IMG/VR virus record: IMGVR_UViG_2698536638_000003 | Coordinates: 1-64,000 of that record | Direction: 5' to 3' (one strand) | Length of the DNA: 64,000 nt | Source of the DNA: an uncultured virus (IMG/VR IMGVR_UViG_2698536638_000003) | Lineage: Duplodnaviria > Heunggongvirae > Uroviricota > Caudoviricetes | In this document: positions 1 through 62,773 of the stretch, piece by piece | Position numbering within the stretch: the first letter of the stretch is position 1 | Layout of the letters: each line of letters begins with the position of its first letter | The notes under the pieces: model-generated | Seen by the model: the letters and a program-made list of their open reading frames with translations, nothing else | Database searches by the model: none | Told to the model about the DNA's origin: nothing | Made by a program: the position numbers and the translations under genes

Positions 1-1023
1 TCAAAGTGTGTCTGGAACCATCTGATCGATAGCCCGCTTCAATGACGCCAAACCATTGTGGGAATAGCGCTTCGTCATTGAGTCGGTCTTGTGACCCATC
101 AGATCCTGCGTGGTAAACGACGACACACCGGACTGTATCAGCCATGATGCGAAGGTATGTCGCAGGTCATGGATATGAAGCTTCGGCATGCCCGCCCGCT
201 TGCGGATGCCGTTCCAGCTCGCCTTGAAATCGAACTGTGCCTTGCCCTCCTTTCTCCCTTTGAAGAGGTAGCCGACCCGGTGTGCTTCAGGTGTGTTCGA
301 AAGTGTGTCTCGAACCTCCTGCCGGAGCGGAATTCGTCTAGAACTGCTGTTTTTCGTGCGCTCGCCGTCAAGTTGTATGAGGCCGTGCTCCAGGTCGATC
401 TCGTCCCAGTTCAACTTCATGAGCTCCTGGTGGCGCATGCCGGTCCAGACCGCCAGGGTGATGAACATCCGCTGGTGGGCTTCCGTGCAGGCAGCAAGGA
501 GCTTCTCATAGTGATGGAAGTGCAGATACACCTCGCGGCGATCAGCATCCGCGATGTCCTTCTTGTCCAGGCCCTTGAGGGGGTTCCGGTCAACTCCACA
601 GTCCCAGCGTCGAGCATGTGTCATCAAGGTGCTCAAGAAAGCCAGGTCGCGCCGAAGCTGGACCGTCTTTCCTGTTTTCATCTTGGTCTTGATGTAGGTC
701 TGGACGCGCTCTTCATCTAGTACCCGCAACGGAAAATCCCCGAGCACCTCGACGATGTTGGTGAGGCTCGTCGTGTAGTGGCGCCTGGTGGCTTTCGAGT
801 ACGGCCGGCGCCGAGGATGCTCGAAGAGCTTCTCCGTCGCTTTGACGACCAGAAGGTCGTTGTCCAGCAGAAGTGCCGCGTTTAGCTCTTGCTCGAGGCG
901 ATCTGCCTCCGCTTGAGCAGCCTTTGGACATTTGAGGCCAGTGGACCTTCTAATGACGTTGCCCCCGACGTTGAGGCGGGCTTGGTAGGTGCTTGATCTC
1001 TCTCGTATGTAAATGTCGGCCAT
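1..1023 (-). CDS. int: Tyrosine recombinase / phage integrase (340 aa from MADIYIRER)
   Basis: Catalytic motifs TGMR, K (RTKN), HDLRH, LMGH and RY; N-terminal arm-binding-like region. Confidence 0.95.
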   Translation of the reverse strand: MADIYIRERSSTYQARLNVGGNVIRRSTGLKCPKAAQAEADRLEQELNAALLLDNDLLVVKATEKLFEHPRRRPYSKATRRHYTTSLTNIVEVLGDFPLRVLDEERVQTYIKTKMKTGKTVQLRRDLAFLSTLMTHARRWDCGVDRNPLKGLDKKDIADADRREVYLHFHHYEKLLAACTEAHQRMFITLAVWTGMRHQELMKLNWDEIDLEHGLIQLDGERTKNSSSRRIPLRQEVRDTLSNTPEAHRVGYLFKGRKEGKAQFDFKASWNGIRKRAGMPKLHIHDLRHTFASWLIQSGVSSFTTQDLMGHKTDSMTKRYSHNGLASLKRAIDQMVPDTL

Positions 1024-1214
1024 TGATGGACCTTCCTCTGTTGTTGAGAAACATCCATGTTGTTCAGCCACTGCTCGACTTCTGTCAAGCGGAACCGAAA
1101 CTGTCGGCCGAGCTTTACAGCACCCGGGATCATACCCCGCGCTGCCCAATACCTGATAGTCCTGTCAGACACAGCTAGCTTGTCAGCCAGGTGCTTTGCC
1201 GAAAGCCACACCAC
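882..1214 (-). CDS. xis: Excisionase-like helix-turn-helix protein
   Basis: WLSAKHLADKLAVSDRTIRYWAARGMIPGAVKLGRQFRF is a typical Xis/HTH_17 pattern; directly upstream of int and overlapping it; GTG start inferred. Confidence 0.75.
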   Translation of the reverse strand: MVWLSAKHLADKLAVSDRTIRYWAARGMIPGAVKLGRQFRFRLTEVEQWLNNMDVSQQQRKVHQWPTFTYERDQAPTKPASTSGATSLEGPLASNVQRLLKRRQIASSKS

Positions 1215-3181: not shown

Positions 3182-5179
3182 TTACCTCGCGATGAGCTTG
3201 AGATAATGGCTCAGGTGGTCGTCGTTGTCGGCGAGCACGCTGAGTAGTGGGTACTTGGCGACCAGCCCATTGAACTTGTCGCGGAAGTCCGTCTTGATGT
3301 CCGGCAGCATCTTGCCGGTCACCTGGACCCACAGCTGGGACAGGAGAACATCCTGGTAGCTGTTGGTCGGCATGTTTTTCGCCTTCGCGAGGAGATCACG
3401 GAGACGCTTCGGCAGCTGGTCGAGCCGATTGAGCAGAACCGCTGCCAGGCGCTGGTTGCGGAAACCGCTCACATCGCTCTTGATGACGTAGGCCTTGGCG
3501 TTGAAGCTCGACGCCGTGTCCTTCAGCAACTGGTCGAGGTGGACCCAGCCTGGCCGGTCTTTCGGCAGGCCACGCTGGTTCTTCATCAGAACGATGACCT
3601 CGGAGTTGTGGTCGAGGATGTCCATGTTCTTCAACCGCTTGACGTAGCGGTCCTGCACCTGGTCGAACTCGAGCACCTCGCCGAAGACTTCGTACTTGCT
3701 GGCGTCGGAGAAGATGTAGACGGCCTTCTCCGGCTCCGGGACGATGTTCCGATGGGCATCGAACCTGCGGATGTCCTGCTTCGTCAGGGCGACCCGAGGG
3801 CGTCTGTTTGCGCGGGGCAGCTTGAGGCGCTCGAAGGTGCGGAGGTCGAGGACGTTCTCGACGCCATAATAGGCGGCGATCGCCTCCTTGCTCTGGCCCT
3901 TCACCCACAGGATGCTGTCCTCTGCGTCGTTCTCCCAGCGGAACATCCGCATCCGGTCCTTGCCGAAGGTGCAGTCCTCGGCTTCCCAGATGATGGTCAG
4001 GAGCTTCAGCTCCTCGGGGGTGAGCGAGGGTGCCGTCTGATAGTAGCGGGAGCGGCCTACGGGCTGGCGTGGTGGGGCGAACTTGACGTCGGCCGCCCAG
4101 CTGTCGAGCACTGCGGCTCTGCCAGCGCTGAGATAGGAAAACGTGGTGCGCAGCGGGCGCTTACCGCGCCACACTGGTTCCTTGATCATGGCTTTCCCGA
4201 GCCGATGGCTCAGTTCCCGGTACTTGATACAGGCGTCGAGATAGTTGTCCGGCTCGTCGAGCGCCGCCTGGAGCTCTTTTGCGATGTGCCGGCGGATTTC
4301 CTGCCAGATCATGCGCAGGTTGTCCTTGGTGGGCTCGTCGTAGCCCAGCTGCTCACGCGAGGTCTGGACGCTGGCGGTGCCGATCGGAACGTCGATGATG
4401 ACCGGGATGCGCAGCACGTCCGTGTCGTCGATCTCTACCAGCTGGGTGATGTCAAGCGGGTAGAGGACGCAGCCCTGGCGGATGTGCGGGGTCTTGATGT
4501 GGACCGAGTTGACGATGCGGTAGTCCGTGCCGGCCATGAGCGTCGTCGGGGACGCAGGGGTCCACTGGTCGTTCAGGATGTTCGGCATCGGGTCGAAACC
4601 GATCATCACTCGCTCGATCGCAGTGCGGAAACGCTGGATGTCGCCCTGCTGGACAGGGAACTTGATCATCAGACCACGGCGCTCGTAGCTCTCTTCCTCG
4701 GCGGCGAGGCTGACGGTGGGCGAGCCGCCTTCGTCCAGGAAGCAGACATACTCACGCTTGGACGCACCATCGAAGCAGGTGATGACGTACTGCGTGGTGT
4801 AGGCGAACGGCGACTTCATGCCGAGGCCAAGCATGCCGACCTGGCTGTTGTCGCCACGTTTGTTGGAGCCGAACAGCGTGGTCGCCCGCTGCATGACGTC
4901 TTCGTGATCCATGCCGGGGCCGAAATCGCGGACCATGAAGTACGGGCTGAAGGTCGATGGCGCCATCAGCTGGAAGGGCACGTCGTGCTTCCCGACAGCG
5001 ATGTGGGCGTCATAGGCGTTGGTCGCCAGTTCGCGAACCGGCGCCTGGATCTTGTCGGAGTAGATGCCGTCGATCACCGCATGGAAGGCGAAGGCGTTCA
5101 TTTCGAAGCCGAACTTGCGGGCCTCGGTCAGGCCGCCCGAGTGGAAATCCTCGGAGCGGCGGTTGTTGAGTATCATCAT
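3182..5179 (-). CDS. rIIA: rIIA-like protein with N-terminal GHKL ATPase domain
   Basis: IYSDKIQAPVRELATNAYDAH, RDFGPGM and GMLGLGMKSPFAYT motifs; paired with rIIB. Confidence 0.9.
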   Translation of the reverse strand: MMILNNRRSEDFHSGGLTEARKFGFEMNAFAFHAVIDGIYSDKIQAPVRELATNAYDAHIAVGKHDVPFQLMAPSTFSPYFMVRDFGPGMDHEDVMQRATTLFGSNKRGDNSQVGMLGLGMKSPFAYTTQYVITCFDGASKREYVCFLDEGGSPTVSLAAEEESYERRGLMIKFPVQQGDIQRFRTAIERVMIGFDPMPNILNDQWTPASPTTLMAGTDYRIVNSVHIKTPHIRQGCVLYPLDITQLVEIDDTDVLRIPVIIDVPIGTASVQTSREQLGYDEPTKDNLRMIWQEIRRHIAKELQAALDEPDNYLDACIKYRELSHRLGKAMIKEPVWRGKRPLRTTFSYLSAGRAAVLDSWAADVKFAPPRQPVGRSRYYQTAPSLTPEELKLLTIIWEAEDCTFGKDRMRMFRWENDAEDSILWVKGQSKEAIAAYYGVENVLDLRTFERLKLPRANRRPRVALTKQDIRRFDAHRNIVPEPEKAVYIFSDASKYEVFGEVLEFDQVQDRYVKRLKNMDILDHNSEVIVLMKNQRGLPKDRPGWVHLDQLLKDTASSFNAKAYVIKSDVSGFRNQRLAAVLLNRLDQLPKRLRDLLAKAKNMPTNSYQDVLLSQLWVQVTGKMLPDIKTDFRDKFNGLVAKYPLLSVLADNDDHLSHYLKLIAR

Positions 5180-9714: not shown

Positions 9715-10068
9715 TCAGGCTCCTTCGGGTTGGAAATCGTCGCGGTTGACGTAGCGGCCGAGACGCAGTCGCTGGTTGTGGTCGAGGATCATGAAGAACC
9801 CCGCTGCGCGCATCTCGGCCTGCAGGTCGTTGAGGGCACGCATGTGGGTCACCACCAGGCCAGGCGTCGTTTCGAGACGGCGCTCATGCTGGATATTGAC
9901 CTGGACCTCGCGGATCTCGTGCCAGGTCTTGGCGCCGGCATGCTTGAAGCCCATGATGTCGGGCTTGGTCAGCGCCAGGAACTTTTCGATCGAGTTGATT
10001 TCGTAGCGGCGCAGAGCGTTGCTGGCGCGGACGCTCAGTTCGAGGTTGTCGACGAAGTCGTGGGACAT
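9715..10068 (-). CDS. RNA polymerase alpha-subunit CTD-like protein
   Basis: VDNLELSVRASNALRRYEINSIEKFL...GFKHAGAKTWHEIREV matches the alpha-CTD pattern (LELSVRSxNCL...NLGxKSLxEI). Confidence 0.8.
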   Translation of the reverse strand: MSHDFVDNLELSVRASNALRRYEINSIEKFLALTKPDIMGFKHAGAKTWHEIREVQVNIQHERRLETTPGLVVTHMRALNDLQAEMRAAGFFMILDHNQRLRLGRYVNRDDFQPEGA

Positions 10069-10904
10069 TTGGTGCTCCAGAGGAAAGCCCACCAGCGGCG
10101 CCGGGGCTTCCTGAATTCAAGGTTGTGGGTGTCCATCAGCTTCTGGATCAGGGCGTCCGCATTGCGGACCTCGCCCTCGGCAAAGCCGCGGGCGGTGGTC
10201 ACCTCGGAGAGCCTGACGATCTTCAGCATCGCTTTGTGACGCGGCCTCAAGTTGCCGGCCACATGCGGTCGAGGAAGCTCTCCCAGGCGTCCTTCGTGTA
10301 GGCTTGCTGGGTCGCCTCGAAGTGAGCGCCGGTCTCGACCGACACGAACACACCTCGCTCGGTCGGGTGCGCCGTCACGATATGATAGTTGTCCTTGCTG
10401 CCCCCGCCGGTGAACTGCCAGCGCTTGGCCCGCTCGGCGTTCGCCTTGGTGTAGGGATCGAGATGGATCGGACAGCATTTCTTGTAGCCGTAGACGGCCA
10501 GGCAGAAGTGGCGCTCAGTCATAGCTCGTAGACCTCTTTCATGAGGGTGAGGTAGCGATCGGGGTTCGGGTGGCTGTTGAAGCGCTCGGCGATCGCCGGC
10601 CCGTCGCAGTCATAGAGGCGGGCCACGACACTGGTCTGGCCCTTCTCACAGGGCTGGTCGTGGCAGACGACCCAGTGACTGAACTTCTTGCTCCAGATGG
10701 CGCGGAGCTTCACGCCGCCGTGTCCCGGATCCACTTCTCATCGATCACGCGGGCCGTCTCCTGGCTCACCGACTCGCCCAGGTCGCGGAGGAACTCCTTC
10801 TGGTCGTTGAGAGTTGTGTCGCGGCGGAAAACGAACCGGACCTTGCCGAGCTCGCGCTGCCACATAAGACTTTCGAGTGGTGTTCCGGCGATGAGCACCT
10901 TCAT
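10035..10904 (-). CDS. Four small hypothetical genes (10035-10229, 10247-10522, 10519-10734, 10710-10904)
   Basis: Closely packed ORFs on the early strand. Confidence 0.5.
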
Positions 10905-14665: not shown

Positions 14666-16746
14666 TCGAACCCCCATGCAGCGGCGATCGCTTTGGCCGC
14701 CTTAAGTTGTTGGTCGGTGAACACGCGCTGGCCGGCGTCTTTGCCGAACTGGTGCAGATACGACTCGAACTTGCCGTCATCCAGCGTGTGGAGGTTGCCA
14801 GCCTCCTTCGTGACGGCGACGGGCCAGGTGTCGGCCAGGCCGACAACCTTCTCGCTCTCGATGACGAGCACGTCGCCGTTCTTGATGTCGTCGATGCACT
14901 GGGTGAAGTCGTAGGCGTCACCGGTGCTGTCGAAGAAATGGATCTTGATGGTGTCGAACATTATGACAGAAACCCTTCGAAGTGGGTGGTGAACTCTTTC
15001 TCCAGCTCGATCGAGCTATCGCCGACGATCAGGTAGCCGTCGTCGTCATCATTCGGATCCCAAAGCACGAAGATGCCTGGGTAGGCCTTGGCGCGGGTGA
15101 CCAGTGCAGGTGATGCTTGGCGCTCGAACTCGGCGCGGGCATCGAGGCGGTAGCCGTTGTTGGTGATGACGTCGGTCATTCATGACCTCCTTGGCCTCGG
15201 AAAAAATCTCATCAGGAACATGAGCTCGTCGCGGGCGGCCTGGTCGTCACCGACCTCGGCCTTGGCGAGGAACTGCTCCACGCGGCCATAGATGTTGGCG
15301 CCGACGCGCTGACAGACGTCCTCGCGGGCTTTGCGGACTGGGTTGATCATGGCGCTGTGCAATCGTTGGCGATGACGGTGATGGTCTTGCCCGACTTGTC
15401 GAGCTTGACGCGGGAGAGCTCGACCATGTCGCCGGCCTGGTAGCCGCGTGGACGAGCGCTCTCGTGGATCTTCTCCCAGGCGATCTTCTTGCCTCCGACG
15501 ATCTCGCCGGTACGGTCGCCCATCATCCAACGGTCGGTGTAGGTAGGGATTTGAACTCGCATTGTGATGTCCTTGTGGGTGGACGGTGAGGCCCAGCCAT
15601 CCACGCCCCGGTGCAGATGCGACACCGGGCCAACAAGCGTTGCCGTTAAGTGGATGGCTGGGCTCCCCTGGAGGAGAGCATGTATGGGCACCTGAAACGG
15701 TGTCAGGGCAGCTTGTCGGCTACCCTGTTGAGGTGGTTGGCGAGGTCGCGGATGGTGTTGCGGTCGAGGGGCAGCACCACCTGGCCGCGGCCGATGGCCT
15801 TCTGGCTGGTCCAGTTCTCCAGCACGATGAAGTCGAGCACCGGCGTCACGTTGATGCCCGTCGCCTTGAAATGGCCGTTCCTGCCCAGGGCATAGAGCGG
15901 TTCCATGGGCTCGGGGCGCTTTGGGAAGGGGATGACGACATTCATGCCGCGTTCCTCGTCACGTCGAGCGTGTGGTCATGGATCTCGCCGGGGATCAGCT
16001 CGGCGTTGAGCTGCTTGAAGCGGTTGCCGTCGACATCAGCCGAGCGCCAGATGAGGAACCTGGCGAACTGGCTCGGCCGGCAGATGATCGTCTGCTGGGT
16101 GCGGACGGCGTGATAGGCCTGGGTGCATGTCAGGCCGAAGGCCTTCTGCGCTGCCCGGGCGTTGGCCGCGTGGTTCTTGTCGACGTCCGACAGGCTGAAG
16201 CGGACTCTGTCGTTGGACATAGTCATGAGCGGGGCTCCTTGGTGGGGACAAAGGCTGACGGCGCCGGGAATAGCTCCGGGCCCGGGCCGATGACGATGGC
16301 GACCCCGCCGAAGCCGATCTTGGACCAGCATGGGCGGAGGTCGTTGTGGTGGAGGGGTGGCGACACGTCGTACATGTCGCGGCGCCAGTTCTTCATGGCG
16401 TCACCGGCACGTTCAGGCCGTACTTGCCGGCGAGGGTGTCGAACGCAGCGTTCATCTCGCGCGGAAAGTCGTTGCTATCGTGGGCCGACTGCAGATCCCG
16501 GAACTCTTGCTTCGCCAGGTCCATGAACAGGCCACGCCGCTGGAAATCATCAAGGTTGAAGACGCCAACCGAGAAGTTATCCATTTCGGGGATGTACTCG
16601 TCGTCGTCGATGAGCTGGCCGATCGCGCACTTACAGTTCTTGGGGCCGCGATACATGCACTGCATGTGGTGATCGCTGTAGGAGCGCTGCCAGCCCTGGG
16701 CGGCGAGGCCCAGGTAGACGCGGTCAAATTGCTCCTGGGTGATCAT
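14662..16746 (-). CDS. Cluster of small hypothetical genes (14662-14961, 14961-15179, 15180-15350, 15347-15562, 15703-15945, 15942-16226, 16223-16396, 16393-16746)
   Basis: Coupled ORFs; the last has a CMYR...CKCAIG...LQSAHD motif common in phage proteins. Confidence 0.55.
15591..15663 (-). ncRNA. Intergenic structured element (14-bp stem, multibranch cap)
   Basis: GCCCAGCCATCCAC / GTGGATGGCTGGGC perfect inverted repeat enclosing a CCCGGTG/CACCGGG hairpin. Confidence 0.5.
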
Positions 16747-17309
16747 GCGTAAAAGTCCTGTCTGTGATGCTTCTTGATGAGGAGGGGGTCGATGATGATC
16801 GGTGTGTCAGACCGGTAATCACGCATGACGTTGCCGGCGTGGATGTCGTGGACGAGCCGGTAATCGACGAGCTGCTCGACAGCCTTGCGGTAGCGAGCGC
16901 TGGGCTTGCCCTCGGAGTGGGTGGTTGTGCCGGAGATCTTATTAAACGTGGCGGTGATGGTCGCCGACGTTTTGGTCCGCTCGGATCTGGGCGATTTTTT
17001 ATATCGCCTCATGACGCACCAGAAATTCGTTCGGGCGCTGTTCCACTCCAAGGCGTAGACCTTGGGGAAGAACTTGGAGCTGATCTCCTTGTCGATCAGC
17101 TGCTGCGCGAAATACGGAAAGCCATCGTAGTAGCCGACGCGTGCGCTGTAGTGCCGGCCGATCTTGATGACGACATCAGGAGCGTCGGGATGCACGAAGG
17201 CCCTGGAGTAGGCCCCACGGCCGATCTGGACGTATCCCTGAACGCGTAGGGTGGCTGCACTGAGGCAGGCGTGGCGGCGGGCATGGTTGATCTGGGCACG
17301 GATGTGCAT
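16743..17309 (-). CDS. T7 gp0.7-like Ser/Thr protein kinase
   Basis: IGRGAYSRAFVHP (Gly loop), VVIKIG (catalytic Lys), PKVY, HDIHAGNVM (catalytic loop) and IIIDP. Confidence 0.8.
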   Translation of the reverse strand: MHIRAQINHARRHACLSAATLRVQGYVQIGRGAYSRAFVHPDAPDVVIKIGRHYSARVGYYDGFPYFAQQLIDKEISSKFFPKVYALEWNSARTNFWCVMRRYKKSPRSERTKTSATITATFNKISGTTTHSEGKPSARYRKAVEQLVDYRLVHDIHAGNVMRDYRSDTPIIIDPLLIKKHHRQDFYA

Positions 17310-17340
17310 CGTCGCTCTCCAGGGTGGGGTGTGATGGGAG

Positions 17341-17426
17341 AAACTAGCCGTGCAGGGGTCGAACCTGCCTGTCCCGCCCTCGCTCATTCGTTGGCCACGG
17401 TTGTCACCACGATCGACGGCTAGTTT
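17341..17426 (-). ncRNA. tRNA-like element (acceptor-like stem plus canonical T-arm; no recognisable D or anticodon arm)
   Basis: Minus strand: AAACTAGCCGT ... GCAGG-TTCGACC-CCTGC-ACGGCTAGTTT. Confidence 0.5.
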
Positions 17427-17745
17427 TGTGCTGTTTCACGCGCAGCGGTGCGTATGGTTTGGGTCGCTAAGACCGCCCTAGTTAAGGTCCAAGGGGCAGG
17501 ACCCGCATTCAGCGACTGAGAGTGATCACGAGGCCTTACACGTACTGGCGGCATCGATCCCCTCTGGGGGGAGCCCGTACTTCCTTTATCGGCGTGCGAT
17601 CTGAGAGATTTGGTTCAATTCCGATGCGCCGTAGGTGGCTCGGATGAGCGGTGGTTGATGAGGGCGCTATAGGTAGTCCTTGGCGGCGCGGCTCGCGTTA
17701 AATCTTCATGATTGCCTCCTATGTGGGGTCGGTCGGACCTGGGGA

Positions 17746-18060
17746 TCACACCAGCTGTCGACTGATGTGCGCGACCATCTTCTCGGGTCGCGTGGTGGTG
17801 AGGTTGGTGAACGCGCACCAGTGGTAGGGCCCGACCTTGAGGTAGGTCGCGGCGATGTCGTCGGTCAGGCGTTCGCACAGCCTGAAGCCGCCCGGGCAGT
17901 AGATCGGGGGCAGCATCTCGAGGAATTCGTCGTAGATCGTCTGGTCGATCTGCCAGAACTTGCCCAGCATCCACTCCGCTGGCTTGCCCTCTCGCGTCCA
18001 GCGATTGAGGTTCACGTAGTGGAGGGTGCGGTCGCCCTGGGCGCTAGGAAGCTGGAACAT
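17746..18060 (-). CDS. DUF1419-like protein
   Basis: GKFWQIDQTIYDEFLEMLPP...FRLCERLTDDI resembles rhizobial DUF1419 (from recall). Confidence 0.6.
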   Translation of the reverse strand: MFQLPSAQGDRTLHYVNLNRWTREGKPAEWMLGKFWQIDQTIYDEFLEMLPPIYCPGGFRLCERLTDDIAATYLKVGPYHWCAFTNLTTTRPEKMVAHISRQLV

Positions 18061-18256
18061 TTGGCTTGTCCCATGTGAGGTCGAAGACCGAGACGAAATA
18101 CTCAGACCCAATGCCGTCATCGGCCCACTTCACGTAGACCCGATTGCGGCCGGTCTTTTCCCAGCCTGTGACAGTGGCTTTCTCGCCGCGGAAGGAGGTG
18201 ACCTCGTCACCGACTTTGACCGGGCGGCCATCGGGGTGGAATAGGTGGCGGTTCAT
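18044..18256 (-). CDS. Small beta-barrel-like hypothetical protein
   Basis: PVKVGDEVTSFRGEKATVTGW...; coupled ORF. Confidence 0.55.
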   Translation of the reverse strand: MNRHLFHPDGRPVKVGDEVTSFRGEKATVTGWEKTGRNRVYVKWADDGIGSEYFVSVFDLTWDKPNVPAS

Positions 18257-18675
18257 GCTGCGGCGTCCTTCTTGATCCAGCGGTCGAACGTGTTCTGAGC
18301 GGCCTCGTCGGTCATGTAGCCGTCCAAGGTTCGGATGCCGGCCATGAGTGGCGCGATGCACCAATCGCAGTCTTCCTCGAGCACGAAGAACTCGAAGTCC
18401 TGCATGTTGGCGAGCTGGGTCGGGGTGACCTTGAACGAGCGGCGCCGGTATTCGTGCATGACGGCCTTGCCGTAGTCCTGGGCCTGCTCGGGGTCCTTGT
18501 GCAGGCGGAACTTGAGGTATTCTTCGTGCGTCAGGGCACGGGCGTCGATCACGAAGCCGCCATGGCCTGAGCAGGAGAAGTAGAAGGCTCCGGCCCGGTT
18601 GGTGCGGGATGAATTGGTGCCGCCTGTGCCCCAGAGGGCCTCGGCGATCGAGCGAGCTTGGGAATGGGTCAGCAT
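18253..18675 (-). CDS. Hypothetical phage protein (DUF7007-like)
   Basis: SCSGHGGF and EEDCDW motifs. Confidence 0.55.
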   Translation of the reverse strand: MLTHSQARSIAEALWGTGGTNSSRTNRAGAFYFSCSGHGGFVIDARALTHEEYLKFRLHKDPEQAQDYGKAVMHEYRRRSFKVTPTQLANMQDFEFFVLEEDCDWCIAPLMAGIRTLDGYMTDEAAQNTFDRWIKKDAAA

Positions 18676-19317: not shown

Positions 19318-19332
19318 AGGGTGCTCCCGGCA

Positions 19333-19527
19333 TTCCAACACATCAAAGAAGTCCCGTTTCGTTTTCTATAATCAATTATTGTACTATGGGTACAATAATT
19401 CCTTCCAAGGACTGAAATGAAACTCGTTTGATGTGTTGGAACCTTTTCCCCTCTTGGCAAGGGGAAGGAAAGAAAAAAGAGAATTCTTATTAAAAGAGCC
19501 CGAAAAGCCCTTTAGTTAAAAGGGCTT
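19333..19527. promoter_or_regulatory. AT-rich nested inverted-repeat region (origin, promoter/operator or structured RNA)
   Basis: 15-bp IR 19333-19347/19427-19441; 11-bp IR 19374-19384/19390-19400; TATAAT at 19367; further hairpins at about 19446-19466 and 19505-19527. Confidence 0.6.
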
Positions 19528-19706: not shown

Positions 19707-19796
19707 GGTCGTGTCCTCCGACAACTGGTTGCAAAATGCATCTGGTCAGCCCCGCGACCGCGAGGCCTTGAAACTTTTCGGGTCGCTGATTTGGTC

Positions 19797-19898
19797 CCCG
19801 CCAGCGCCACCCCCACAACCACCTAACGCCCTCTGCAACGGAAAGTTGCAGCTACTGACGCAACAGGTACATATGGTTGTGGACGTGGCGCTGGCGGG
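19797..19898 (-). ncRNA. Intergenic structured element (14+9-bp stem, multibranch cap)
   Basis: CCCGCCAGCGCCAC/GTGGCGCTGGCGGG and CCACAACCA/TGGTTGTGG stems enclosing a CTGCAAC/GTTGCAG hairpin. Confidence 0.55.
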
Positions 19899-19999
19899 TA
19901 GGTGGTCGTCGTCCCTCCAACGTGTTGATCCGTCGCTGGCATTGCGCGCTCTCCCGAGCTTCCGGCACGTTCCGCTCCTCCACACGACCGTGGAGCGGC

Positions 20000-20640
20000 C
20001 TAATACTTCTGGTAGCAGATGATCTCGCGCCACCCCTTGGCGATGGCGCCGTCCGCTGCGCGCCACGCGGCGACACAGTCAGGGCCGGCCGACACCGTCT
20101 CGCCGTCGACCTCCAGCACATAGAGGTGCTGGCCTGGGCCTTCGGCTGGATGGGGCGAGAGCCAGCTCACGAAAGCGGCGAGCGCGCTGGCGGCGATTGT
20201 GACCTTGATCATGCGAGTTCCCCCTCGAATATGATTTTGAGATCGGCGAGCTCGAACCCTTGCGATCGAGCGAGCTTTTCGGCTTCCTTTTCACAGTGAA
20301 GGGCCGAGCCCTTCACCCGCGCCAGCACCTGGCCCATGAGGCGATCCATGATCACGAACACGGTCTCCACCCCACGCTGATCCTGCGGCGAGTACAGCCG
20401 GCGGGCGTTGCGCTTGATGGGGGCCTGGTGCTGGCGCGACGGCCGAGCCGAGACGCGATCGAGAGCGTCTCGTTCGGGACTGGCGCAGCTCAAGCGCTCT
20501 TTCGAGAGCTTGTTCCATACGCGGTGCTCGACCTCGGCCATGGAATGCGACTGGCTAAAGCCGTCCTCGCGCTCCACGACGGTGGCTCTGGCGAAGACGC
20601 GGCGCATTTTCGGCTGGGAAAGATCGGGCAGGATTTTCAT
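20000..20640 (-). CDS. Two hypothetical genes (20000-20212, with a hydrophobic N-terminus; 20209-20640)
   Basis: Coupled ORFs. Confidence 0.5.
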
Positions 20641-37615: not shown

Positions 37616-38322
37616 TGCGTACTTTTGAAGCCGGCAGGGACATCACCCTGCCGGTCAGCCTTTTCTACAACGGACAGCCAGCCGTCCCGGATGCCGGGAC
37701 GGCTGTCCTGTCTGTGTCCGCTGGTGGCACCGTCATCTTCACCGAAGAGCTGACGACCGGCCCCACCGACGCGGTGCTTGTCGTGACCGTGCCGGCCGAG
37801 CACAACCAGATCTCGACCCCGTTCTCCCGTCGCGTCATCCGCGTCACCGCGGAGCGTGGAGGCCTGCCCTTCGACAGCATGACCATGTACCGGCTCGTGC
37901 CGGCGATCCTCTACACCGTCACCCCCGCCGACGTGCGCGCCTTCCTTGGCGTCAACGAGAGCGAGCTGCCGGACGAGGACGTGGATCTGTCGGGCGCGCT
38001 GCTCAACATCGAATTCAGCATCACCCGCGAGACCATGGCTGCCGCCCTGGTGTCGGGTGACGTCGCCGAGGTGCGCGCGAATGACGCGATCCTCTACACC
38101 ACCGTCCTGGCCCTGATCCCGTCGCTCGCCAACCGCGTGGCCCAGGAAGAGACGGACGGCGCGCTCTCGTTCCGCCGCAACGCCCGCAAGGACTTCTCGG
38201 AACTGCAGAAAGCTGCCGAGGCTCGTCTGTCCGCAGCCATGGCCGTGCTCAACCCTGTGGTCGACCCTGGCTACGCGATCTTCATCACGACCAATGACGC
38301 CGACCCAGTCACGGGTGCGTAG
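37615..38322 (+). CDS. Putative head-tail adaptor
   Basis: VTPADVRAFLGV motif; position. Confidence 0.6.
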   Translation: MRTFEAGRDITLPVSLFYNGQPAVPDAGTAVLSVSAGGTVIFTEELTTGPTDAVLVVTVPAEHNQISTPFSRRVIRVTAERGGLPFDSMTMYRLVPAILYTVTPADVRAFLGVNESELPDEDVDLSGALLNIEFSITRETMAAALVSGDVAEVRANDAILYTTVLALIPSLANRVAQEETDGALSFRRNARKDFSELQKAAEARLSAAMAVLNPVVDPGYAIFITTNDADPVTGA

Positions 38323-41355: not shown

Positions 41356-41393
41356 AAGCCTCGCCCGTGACTACATCACGGGCGAGGCTTTTT
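41356..41393 (+). terminator. Intrinsic terminator
   Basis: AAGCCTCGCCCGTGA-CTACA-TCACGGGCGAGGCTT-TTT. Confidence 0.85.
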
Positions 41394-50723: not shown

Positions 50724-53700
50724 TGAAGAAATTTGCAGGCAGCGGCTTCGGTGGTGGCGGGAGCAATGACCCCGACAGCTATTTCAGCGATGATATCATC
50801 GAAGCCGTTCTTGCGATTTCGGAAGGCCCTATCAAGGGCCTGAAGGGCAACAGCTCCAAGAACTTCTACATCGGCGAGACGCCGCTGCTCAACGCCAACG
50901 AGAAGACCAACTTCTCGAACTTTGAACTCGACGTGAACAAGGGCTCGGCGCAGGGCGAGCTCATCGTCTTGTCCCTGGGCGGCCAGGCGATCAGCACGAC
51001 GGTCAGCAGCAGCCTTGCTCAGTTCATCCCGGTGGTTCGTCAGGGTTCGCAAGTCGACATCGACTGGCTGGAGCTGCGCGTCATCGTCAACGCGCTCTAC
51101 CACAGCAAGGATGATGGCACGTCGGCTAAAAGTCTGGATCTCAGGATCCAGATCAAGCCATCCACCAGCTTGGACTGGACACTCCCGGTGCTCTATTCCG
51201 ACCTGGGGACGACGACACAGGCATACGAAAACAGCATCAAGGTCGTCCACCGCGAGGACATCGTGTCGGCCATGACCACTGGTCGCACGCAGGTGGTTTA
51301 CAACCAGTCGACCCAGCCAAACCCCACCTCGGACGAGCGTAGCTTGCCGGCCGCCTACGGTCACCGCGTGTGGTGGATCGATGCCGCGAACGGTGAATTC
51401 AACCCTCGGTTCTACTCGAACGAAGCCTTCTTCCTGCCTGACGGCCTGTCGCTGGCCGGGACGGTTGGCCAAGAGGTCGCCACCTTCGACGACGTGAACT
51501 ACATCGCGCTCATCGACCCCAATCGGTCGGACATCAAGCGCAGCATCTATTTTTGGACGTCAGGCACGCCCTCCAGCGCGCGTGTAGGCGATCTCTGGTA
51601 CGATCCGACGTCCAGCCGCCTGTTGTGGTTCAACGGCGCTGCCTGGGTCAACACGCTGCCTGCGGAGGGCGCCTACGATCCCACCGCCGGCGCGAAGGTT
51701 GTTTCCCAGAACGGCATCCTTCATATCCACGAAAAGATCTCGTCGAACGCGGTCAAGGAAGTGCGCGTCAAGGTCGACAGGATCGGTGTCCCTTACGACA
51801 TCCGCATCACCAAGCTGACGCCGGACTCTGAAGACAGTGGCGATGACCGCACCGACGTCTCCTGGGAGAGCTTCCAGGAGATCAAGGCCGAGCCGCTGCT
51901 GTTCCCCAACCTGGCCACCATCCGGCTGAAGGGCCGCGCCAGCGATCAGTTCTCCAGCCTGCCCACGCTCCAGGGCGTCTACGAGGGCCGTGAGATCAAG
52001 GTCCCATCGAACTACAATGTGGCCGAGCGAACCTACGAAGGCGTTTGGGACGGAACCTGGAAGGTCGCCTATAACAACAACCCGGCCTTCGTCGGCTACG
52101 ACCTGATCGAGAACGACCGCTACGGCATGAGCTCGACGTACCCGGTCACGCTGGACCCGTTTGACGTCTACGAGGCCGGACAGTGGTGCGACCTCCGGCT
52201 CCCCAATGGCAAACCGCAATTCACGTTCAACCAGCTCATCAAGGACCCTCAGTCCCCGCGCGAGCTGGCCACCTATGTGTTCGGCACCTTCGGCGGCCGG
52301 TTCTTCGACGACGGCAACGGCTACGCTCGGCTGCGGATCGACAACGGCCAGGCGCCGGCTGTCCATCTGTTCGCCGCGGAAAACATCAAAGGCTCCTTCA
52401 AATATTCCTACACGGAGATCGAGAGCCGGATCAACGATTACACCGTCTCCTTCAAGAACCCGGCGCTCTTCTACGTCGAAGACCGGCGTCGGGTTTACGA
52501 TCAGCCGTCGATCGACGCCTATGGCCGCGCGCCGGATGATTTCGTCGCCGTGGGCTGCAACAACGCCGACGAGGCGGTCTACCGCGCCACGGTCAAACTG
52601 TTGTCGGACCAAACCGAGGTCGAGACCGTCACGTTCGAGACGGCGCGCGAGGGACTGTACCTCGAGCCCTACGACATCATCCTCATCGCCGACGACACGA
52701 TGGACGAGGTCATCTCGGGCCGCATCAGCAGCACCGATGGCGAGTACACCATCTTCCTGCGCGACAGCGTGTTCCTGGAGGATGGGTTCGACCACGAGAT
52801 CGTCATCAACCTGAACCAGTTCGAGATCGCCACGCTGGCGATCGACGTGGTGTCGGTGGGTCGGGCNCCACGAGATCGTCATCAACCTGAACCAGTTCGA
52901 GATCGCCACGCTGGCGATCGACGTGGTGTCGGTGGGTCGGGCTACCAAGGTTCTGAAGCTGGTTGATCCCATGCCTTCGGGTATCCCGGCTCAGGCTGTG
53001 TTCTCGATCGGGCGGGGCGCCAAGCCTTACCGGGTGCTCGCTATTGGCGAAGGTGGCGAAGGCGACAGCGGCGACGACGAGAGCGTCACTATCACCGCGA
53101 TCGAAGTCAACCGGACGAAGTACGCTGTCGCGGCCGAGTCTCCTGGTTCGGTCGTCATCGACATCCCGGAATTCCCCACCGATCTGTCGGCCGTCACCAA
53201 TGCGCGCATCACGCCGTTCACCGAAGTCCGCAACGGTCGCCCGGTGCAGAACCTGCGCGTCGAGTGGGACGCACACCCCAACAAGTTCGTGCGTAGCTAC
53301 TCGATCAGCTCGCGCTTCGCCGACGACCAGTGGCAGTTCAACGGCGAGGTGAAGAACCCGCGCTTCGAACTCTATGATGTCAAGCAGGGCCGCTACCTCT
53401 TCTCGATCCAAGCCCTGGCGCTGACCGGGCAGAAGTCTGTCGTCGGCTATGCCGACATCGATCTGAGCGGCGAGGTCCGCACGGTGGCCCCCATCAAGAA
53501 CCTCGTTCTTACCAACCAGTCGGGCCTCAACGGCGCAATCCACCTCTTCGACGACGTCCATGCAGATCTGCAGTGGGAAGCTGGCGACAGCGATCCGGCG
53601 CTCTCCTCCTACCGCGTCCAGATCTTCGACGACGGCGAGGTGCTCCTGCGTACGACGTTCGTAGGCGTGCCGGCGTTCTCCTACACGACGTCGATGATCC

Positions 53701-62745: not shown

Positions 62746-62773
62746 ACCTCTCAGTTCGGTGGAACTGAGAGGT
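62746..62773 (-). promoter_or_regulatory. Terminator-like hairpin that covers the nrdJ Shine-Dalgarno
   Basis: Minus strand: ACCTCTCAGTTC-CACC-GAACTGAGAGGT-TTTTT-ATG. Confidence 0.7.

Follow-up and report, generated by a model that had tools for sequence, protein, structure and literature searches.

A tRNA-Lys-like acceptor stem and T-arm in the leader of a gp0.7-like kinase gene of a temperate phage

Results

The window referred to throughout is the whole stretch of DNA that was analysed, 64,000 bases corresponding to bases 1-64000 of an 81,291-base IMG/VR provirus record that is 99% complete. Its GC content is ~61%, and single N bases occur at window position 52867 and record position 76441. 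The phage is temperate and carries a tyrosine integrase (phrog_1, E 6.6e-61) at the left end of the record; the integrase gene ends exactly at record base 1, which places the att sites beyond the record. Early and replication genes, including those for an RIIA-like protein, a primase and a DNA ligase, are located on the minus strand to ~24.6 kb, followed by the structural genes on the plus strand. The RIIA-like protein (3182-5179, minus strand; phrog_612, E 8.6e-95) is encoded near the integrase. A 125-aa protein (9715-10092, minus strand) contains the C-terminal domain of RNA polymerase alpha (PF03118, E 1.9e-12) and could serve in transcription take-over. The terminases of Achromobacter phage JWF and Caulobacter phage Seuss share 43% identity with that of the window. 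PF01068 identifies the ligase as a DNA ligase, and no tRNA-repair gene was found in the genome. The genes and features under study are:

1-1149, minus strand: tyrosine integrase gene
16743-17309, minus strand: T7 gp0.7-like protein kinase gene, 188 aa
17310-17745, minus strand: kinase leader, 436 nt, non-coding, between the DUF1419-like gene and the kinase gene
17746-18120: DUF1419-like gene, the upstream neighbour of the kinase leader
17341-17426, minus strand: whole tRNA-like element, 86 nt, at the 3' end of the leader
17416-17426, minus strand: 5' strand of the closing stem, AAACTAGCCGT
17369-17415, minus strand: interior, 47 nt, between the 5' strand and the T-arm-like hairpin
17352-17368, minus strand: T-arm-like hairpin GCAGG-TTCGACC-CCTGC
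17341-17351, minus strand: 3' strand of the closing stem, ACGGCTAGTTT, with no CCA after it

The kinase assignment is based on matches to phrog_15752 (E 7.6e-11) and phrog_18305, with no Pfam match to the protein. The gene starts at ATG 17309-17307 behind the Shine-Dalgarno sequence GGAGAG (17320-17315), and the 86-nt element ends 31 nt upstream. Both the start codon and the Shine-Dalgarno sequence are conserved in a close relative, L002, and a longer open reading frame that runs from ATG 17387 through the element was for this reason rejected as the kinase gene. No other non-coding gap in the early operon is as large as the leader. It is partly conserved with L002 in nucleotides, but in no reading frame, and because the similarity shifts frame between the two sequences the leader is taken as non-coding. 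At its 5' end, a strong Shine-Dalgarno sequence (AGGAGG) and a three-codon mini-ORF (17698-17720, minus strand; ATG AAG ATT TAA, encoding MKI*, or MKL* at ~2655-2690 of L002) are conserved, and may represent a leader peptide or a regulatory site. The 20-mer of the mini-ORF was found at 7 loci, of which only L010 (on the same contig as L002) is related and the others are ordinary gene starts.

The element consists of a closing stem, the interior and the T-arm-like hairpin, and its T-loop reads in the direction in which the flanking genes are transcribed. The earlier note had described a 5-bp stem with a 7-nt TTCGACC loop on the minus strand, stacked directly on the 3' strand of a TAGCCGT/ACGGCTA stem, and both parts of this description hold. 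The hairpin (GCAGG 17368-17364, TTCGACC 17363-17357, CCTGC 17356-17352) has the 5-bp stem with G53-C61 and the 7-nt TTCRANN loop of a T-arm, and abuts A17351 with zero bases between. The stem is in fact longer than had been described: 11 perfect pairs (17426-17416 with 17351-17341) enclose 64 nt, the last 17 of which are the hairpin, and TAGCCGT/ACGGCTA, the acceptor-type 7-bp portion, is the inner part. An A-tract and TTT lie on either side of the stem. The absence of CCA was likewise confirmed, with GTTTCT following the 7-bp stem where discriminator-CCA would stand and 4 bases beyond the acceptor-type portion pairing with the 5' flank.

The 47-nt interior contains a weak D-arm-like feature at best (AUCG/CCGU, three of four pairs around UGGUGACAA, with GG in the loop), which is unused in the minimum-energy fold. 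An anticodon arm with a 5-bp stem and a 7-nt loop is absent from it, as had been claimed: of the stem positions in the relaxed ARAGORN drawing of this region, 2 are standard pairs, 2 are mismatched and one is a G-T pair, and the Infernal alignment to tRNA-Sec covers no more than the acceptor stem and T-arm, with the D and anticodon arms deleted.

ARAGORN predicted 0 tRNA genes in the window and 0 in the 81-kb record, and when its thresholds were lowered the element was first reported at -ps88, among 17 noise matches in 81 kb, its D-arm being poor and its anticodon stem containing mismatches. No Rfam family was found in the window at gathering thresholds. The tRNA model RF00005, which matched in 14/14 control genomes, gave no match at E<=10 in a search of 801 nt or in five related records, and the best match within the tRNA clan was tRNA-Sec, whose score of 13.4 bits lies below the cut-off of 47 (111-nt search). 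Given no ARAGORN gene, no RF00005 match and this best clan score, a tRNA gene was rejected. Nor do the scores resemble those of an ordinary tRNA pseudogene, an outcome that the earlier note had named as refuting: ARAGORN reports the element only at -ps88 and RF00005 does not match it. A tmRNA was rejected on the lack of an ARAGORN (-m) or Rfam match and the mere 47 nt between the strands. YrlA and other Y RNAs were assessed by the Rfam model, a neighbouring Ro60/TROVE gene and the motif GNCGAAN0-1G, as given in passages of PMC4201824, and were rejected on finding no Rfam match, no TROVE/Ro60 gene in the genome and no such motif in the leader. Thus neither ARAGORN nor the Infernal tRNA, tmRNA and YrlA models returned an accepted match. 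Terminator scoring gave no minus-strand site at the element, which does not form a compact GC-rich hairpin followed by a T-tract.

The hairpin of the element is the sole perfect 5-bp stem with a TTCRANN loop on the two strands of the window, and likewise in the whole record. Such a hairpin was present in 26.5% of random windows (n=400, first-order Markov), and is therefore unremarkable alone; the hairpin with an abutting perfect stem of at least 7 nt, partnered 25-80 nt upstream, was present in 2 of 400. The 98-nt fold has a z score of -2.34, with 2 of 200 shuffles equally good. Within a 451-nt fold, the pair probability is 0.53-1.0 for the closing stem and 0.004 for the T-arm hairpin, and forcing the T-arm costs 3.3 kcal/mol (-34.5 vs -37.8). 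By nearest-neighbour prediction the T-arm is thus not thermodynamically favoured, another pairing of the 3' third being preferred. No copies of the element, MITE-like or otherwise, were found elsewhere in the genome.

Bacterial genomes were searched with the pattern GCAGGTTCGANNCCTGCACGGC, 22 bases that cover the T-arm (two loop bases free) and the next five, 20 of them specified, and it was matched at at least 120 loci. ARAGORN called a tRNA at 97 of the 120 matches listed, comprising 93 tRNA-Lys (60 UUU, 33 CUU), 2 Met, 1 Val and 1 Arg. Ninety of the 120 were kept as a full-length set, the other 30 being truncated, 3'-only or variant. In the full-length set the 3' acceptor strand is ACGGCTC (41 loci), ACGGCCC (41) or ACGGCCT (8), and the 5' strand GGGCCGT (81) or GAGCCGT (9).

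The T-stem (GCAGG/CCTGC) and TTCGA of the element are letter-identical to the tRNA-Lys T-arm, its 3' strand ACGGCT equals positions 66-71 of many tRNA-Lys (ACGGCTC-A-CCA), and the inner GCCGT of its 5' strand equals tRNA-Lys positions 3-7 (GGGCCGT or GAGCCGT). Compared with the GAGCCGT/ACGGCTC form, the sole difference of TAGCCGT/ACGGCTA is pair 1:72, which is compensated; compared with the GGG forms pair 2:71 is changed too, on both sides and with pairing kept. The loop bases CC are rare (2 of the 120 matches listed). Judged by their letters, the two halves of the element, T-arm and acceptor strands, are those of tRNA-Lys, which is the new observation made here.

The interior does not share this likeness. 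Against tRNA-Lys positions 8-48 its local alignment score is 14 (shuffle mean 15.7), and globally it has 28 identical columns (shuffle mean 26.8; 60 of 200 shuffles equally good), whereas real tRNA-Lys pairs average 33.3 identical interior columns. Descent from a whole tRNA gene is therefore only presumptive. Of the three readings given in the earlier note, a degenerate tRNA is the one strengthened, by the match of the T-arm and acceptor strands to tRNA-Lys. A random T-arm-like hairpin plus 5 nt would, by a reasoned estimate that was not computed, match a widespread tRNA form ~1-3% of the time, and combined with the 0.5% figure for the geometry this makes pure chance unlikely. This is a genuine feature that exceeds chance expectation, and it is probably tRNA-Lys-derived. 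Of 401 genomes sampled from a single alphaproteobacterial class, only 6 contained GCAGGTTCGANNCCTGCACGGC (reversed control, 0), a frequency that neither supports nor excludes a host tRNA-Lys as the origin.

Roughly 16 of the 120 matches listed carry the 3' part of tRNA-Lys only, from the anticodon loop through CCA (L023, L038, L039, L040, L056, L060, L067, L086 and others; several from Rhodobacteraceae). These loci bear the mark of elements that integrated into the tRNA-Lys genes of many bacteria, and indicate that tRNA-Lys is a frequent integration target.

The only close relative found is the viral contig represented by L002/G001, from the viral contig collection, whose kinase is 71% identical; no close kinase relatives were found in the genome contig or metagenome contig collections. 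The upstream gene led to three further records, more distant and without the kinase, and a search with the downstream gene found no relatives. Phage GenBank contained no DNA match and only distant kinase homologues, at <=38% identity. The contigs of two soil-metagenome runs, compared at 80% likeness, gave a depth of 0-0.6 over 16912-18318, with the bins at 17314-17715, in which the element lies, at 0; one of the two runs is probably the source of the record, and the low depth counts neither for nor against the element.

The L002 leader can be aligned with that of the window in blocks (73% over 119 nt, plus further short blocks), and the last ~100-160 nt before the conserved Shine-Dalgarno sequence differ between the two. 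At the place of the element, L002 carries an intrinsic terminator (2952-2977 plus a T-tract; 11-bp GC-rich stem, 4-nt loop, TTTTTGTTT) that lies 12 nt before the conserved kinase Shine-Dalgarno sequence. No tRNA was found in any of five related records. Among 21 T-loop-core matches in the five records, only that of the window has a full five-pair Watson-Crick T-stem with an abutting stem of at least 7 bp, and element-specific DNA patterns gave 0 matches in the viral and metagenome contig collections. The T-loop is thus not conserved in the close relative, which, by the refuting condition that the earlier note itself set, weakens its proposals that the element is an RNase P/Z processing signal or a decoy for tRNA-targeting defences. 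At the sequence level the element is a singleton in the collections searched, and support for a function from conservation or covariation is absent; the comparative evidence is thin and counts against a conserved function.

Further structures were seen in the operon. A three-way-junction RNA (15591-15664, minus strand) has a 14-bp closing stem and two inner hairpins (dG -51 for 86 nt), lies ~30 nt before ATG 15560 and has no Rfam family; it is conserved in L002 (4625-4696), the stem differing there by a compensatory G:C to A:T change, and GTTTCAGGTGCCC upstream is conserved as well. Two long-stem structures are located at 19791-19904 and 20312-20444 (minus strand; dG -72 and -70, respectively), the first with an L002 counterpart at 355-451, and an AT-rich 121-nt hairpin (dG -44.5) lies at 19327-19447 in the early region. 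Perfect inverted repeats of at least 11 bp within 100 nt form 28 seed pairs, against a random mean of 4.2. Compact perfect hairpins of 12-16 bp with flanking A/T runs at 41356-41390, 37679-37705 and 62746-62773 are likely bidirectional terminators of the structural and late regions.

Discussion

The favoured reading, to which a probability of about one half is given, is that the element is a tRNA-Lys-derived, non-decoding relic that may have been kept as an RNA structure, serving processing or 3'-end punctuation, in the kinase leader. Of a lysine tRNA, the relic would retain the acceptor/T-arm half, now enclosing an unrelated core of 47 nt. It would form the 3' end of the transcribed 436-nt leader, where, as a stable RNA domain, it could punctuate the early transcript, either by blocking 3' exonucleases or as an RNase P- or RNase E-type endonuclease site, and so take the place of the sister phage's intrinsic terminator. 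The stem and T-arm are near-identical to those of tRNA-Lys but the interior matches it at random level, an unevenness that speaks for a retained helix rather than for plain neutral decay. Likewise, helices kept with compensated changes and a 4-bp extension, around an unrelated core and with the sense strand transcribed, suggest that something, possibly selection on the stem, kept the long helix. Such helices around such a core fit neither neutral decay of a tRNA gene nor a bare att-type fragment. The terminator at the same place in L002, where that phage terminates or attenuates transcription, together with the other operon structures, is why the element is read as an end-of-leader domain. Because the stem continues 4 bp past the tRNA ends and RCCA is missing, the element would be a poor RNase P substrate.

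An ordinary intergenic hairpin, acting as a terminator-like, RNase III/E or stability element with a coincidental T-loop and tRNA-Lys likeness, is possible but rather unlikely. Its minimum-energy fold lacks the T-arm, the T-arm-like motif alone is common in random windows, an A-tract and TTT flank the stem as at a terminator, the homologous place in L002 is occupied by a plain terminator, and other long-stem, multi-branch structures occur in the operon (15591-15664, 19791-19904 and 20312-20444, dG -51 to -72), at least one of them conserved in L002. Coincidence, however, would have to account for a T-arm with an abutting stem, as seen in just 2 of 400 random windows, and for 20 specified bases that equal the 3' end of tRNA-Lys with a complementary 5' strand at a tRNA-like distance; moreover, no minus-strand terminator was scored, and RNase III requires about two helical turns, for which a 13-bp closing helix is short. 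A recombination scar is quite improbable. A tRNA-Lys 3' fragment of att type would then have been left by site-specific or illegitimate recombination and have no present function, as might be expected of a temperate phage with a tyrosine integrase, given the 3'-only tRNA-Lys fragments typical of att duplications among the loci listed (~16 of 120) and an identity to tRNA-Lys that is limited to the 3' part and the complementary strand. For mycobacteriophage Ms6, attB/attP cores in a T-loop have been described (PMC1762012). Against a scar, att-type fragments span the anticodon loop to CCA whereas the identity of the element spans the T-stem to position 71, the integrase is 16 kb off at the prophage end, the orientation of the element coincides with transcription, and the 11-nt perfect complementary 5' strand 64 nt upstream, with its compensated pairs 1:72 and 2:71, is left unexplained.

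An active mimic of tRNA-Lys is likewise quite improbable. The element would in that case be a working minihelix in the kinase leader that replaces the terminator. Its binding partners would be tRNA enzymes (RNase P, the CCA-adding enzyme, T-loop modifiers) or defence nucleases directed at tRNA-Lys, and it would lead to cutting of the early transcript upstream of the kinase, soak up such nucleases as a decoy or sponge, or make kinase expression depend on RNase P. The acceptor/T-arm geometry with G53-C61 and the TTCGA loop agrees with this, as do the stem pairs retained through compensated changes and the specific likeness to tRNA-Lys, which is the target of PrrC and PARIS AriB. The known tRNA-Lys nucleases, however, cut in the anticodon stem-loop, and the element has none; its stem is extended 4 bp without discriminator-CCA, the T-arm is not the favoured fold, conservation was seen in 0 of 4 related records, and neither a tRNA-repair nor a Ro/TROVE gene is present in the genome. 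There are reports of phage tRNAs that counter tRNA-targeting defences (PMC10264068 and PMC11555353), and the YrlA of M. smegmatis, also a T-arm/acceptor mimic, is described in passages of PMC4201824 as cut by RNase P and CCA-tailed. A working minihelix is nonetheless improbable here and, the element being a single copy, an ordinary reading is the more likely one.

If tRNA enzymes do recognise the minihelix, it would be a phage example of tRNA-type mRNA "punctuation", and if it is a non-decoding tRNA-Lys decoy, it would bear on how phages handle tRNA-targeting defences. If it is a relic only, it would record the past acquisition of tRNA-Lys sequence by a tRNA-free phage lineage, and would show half of a tRNA recycled as structural RNA where a relative uses a terminator.

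Among known systems, the element is like bacterial tRNA-Lys (UUU/CUU) in its T-stem, TTCGA, positions 66-71 and 3-7 and a 7-bp acceptor stem abutting the T-arm. Unlike tRNA-Lys, it has no D or anticodon arms, an unrelated interior, changed pairs 1:72 and 2:71, an 11-bp stem and G-UUU for A-CCA, and it fails ARAGORN and Rfam. With the phages of tRNA-dependent lysogeny (PMC10865867) the phage shares a temperate genome with a tyrosine integrase and a tRNA-Lys-type sequence away from int, but the tRNA-Lys of those phages is functional and needed in place of a disrupted host tRNA. Because the element cannot decode, a link to such lysogeny is conceivable as history only. Like YrlA and the bacterial Y RNAs, which passages of PMC4201824 also report in phages, it is a presumed non-coding RNA that combines an acceptor-like stem with a T-arm; unlike YrlA, it is without an Rfam match, a Ro60/TROVE gene, the GNCGAAN0-1G motif and a convincing D-arm. 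The tRNA-Lys 3' fragments of att sites are likewise partial tRNA-Lys 3' sequences inside a mobile element, but they run from the anticodon loop through CCA, sit at the ends of the mobile element beside an integrase and have no complementary 5' strand, whereas here identity stops at position 71 and the integrase is at 1-1149. The true att sites are outside the record, which leaves a link to them conceivable.

The L002 terminator resembles the element in lying directly before the conserved kinase Shine-Dalgarno sequence and in its layout of A-tract, stem and T-tract, and differs from it in that the element encloses 64 nt, is followed by TTTCT only and is not scored as a terminator. RNase III sites flank the early genes of T7, including 0.7. 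Although the closing helix of the element is 11-13 bp and there is no sequence or model match to those sites, both are large intergenic hairpins that punctuate, or in the case of the element may punctuate, an early operon with a gp0.7-like kinase.
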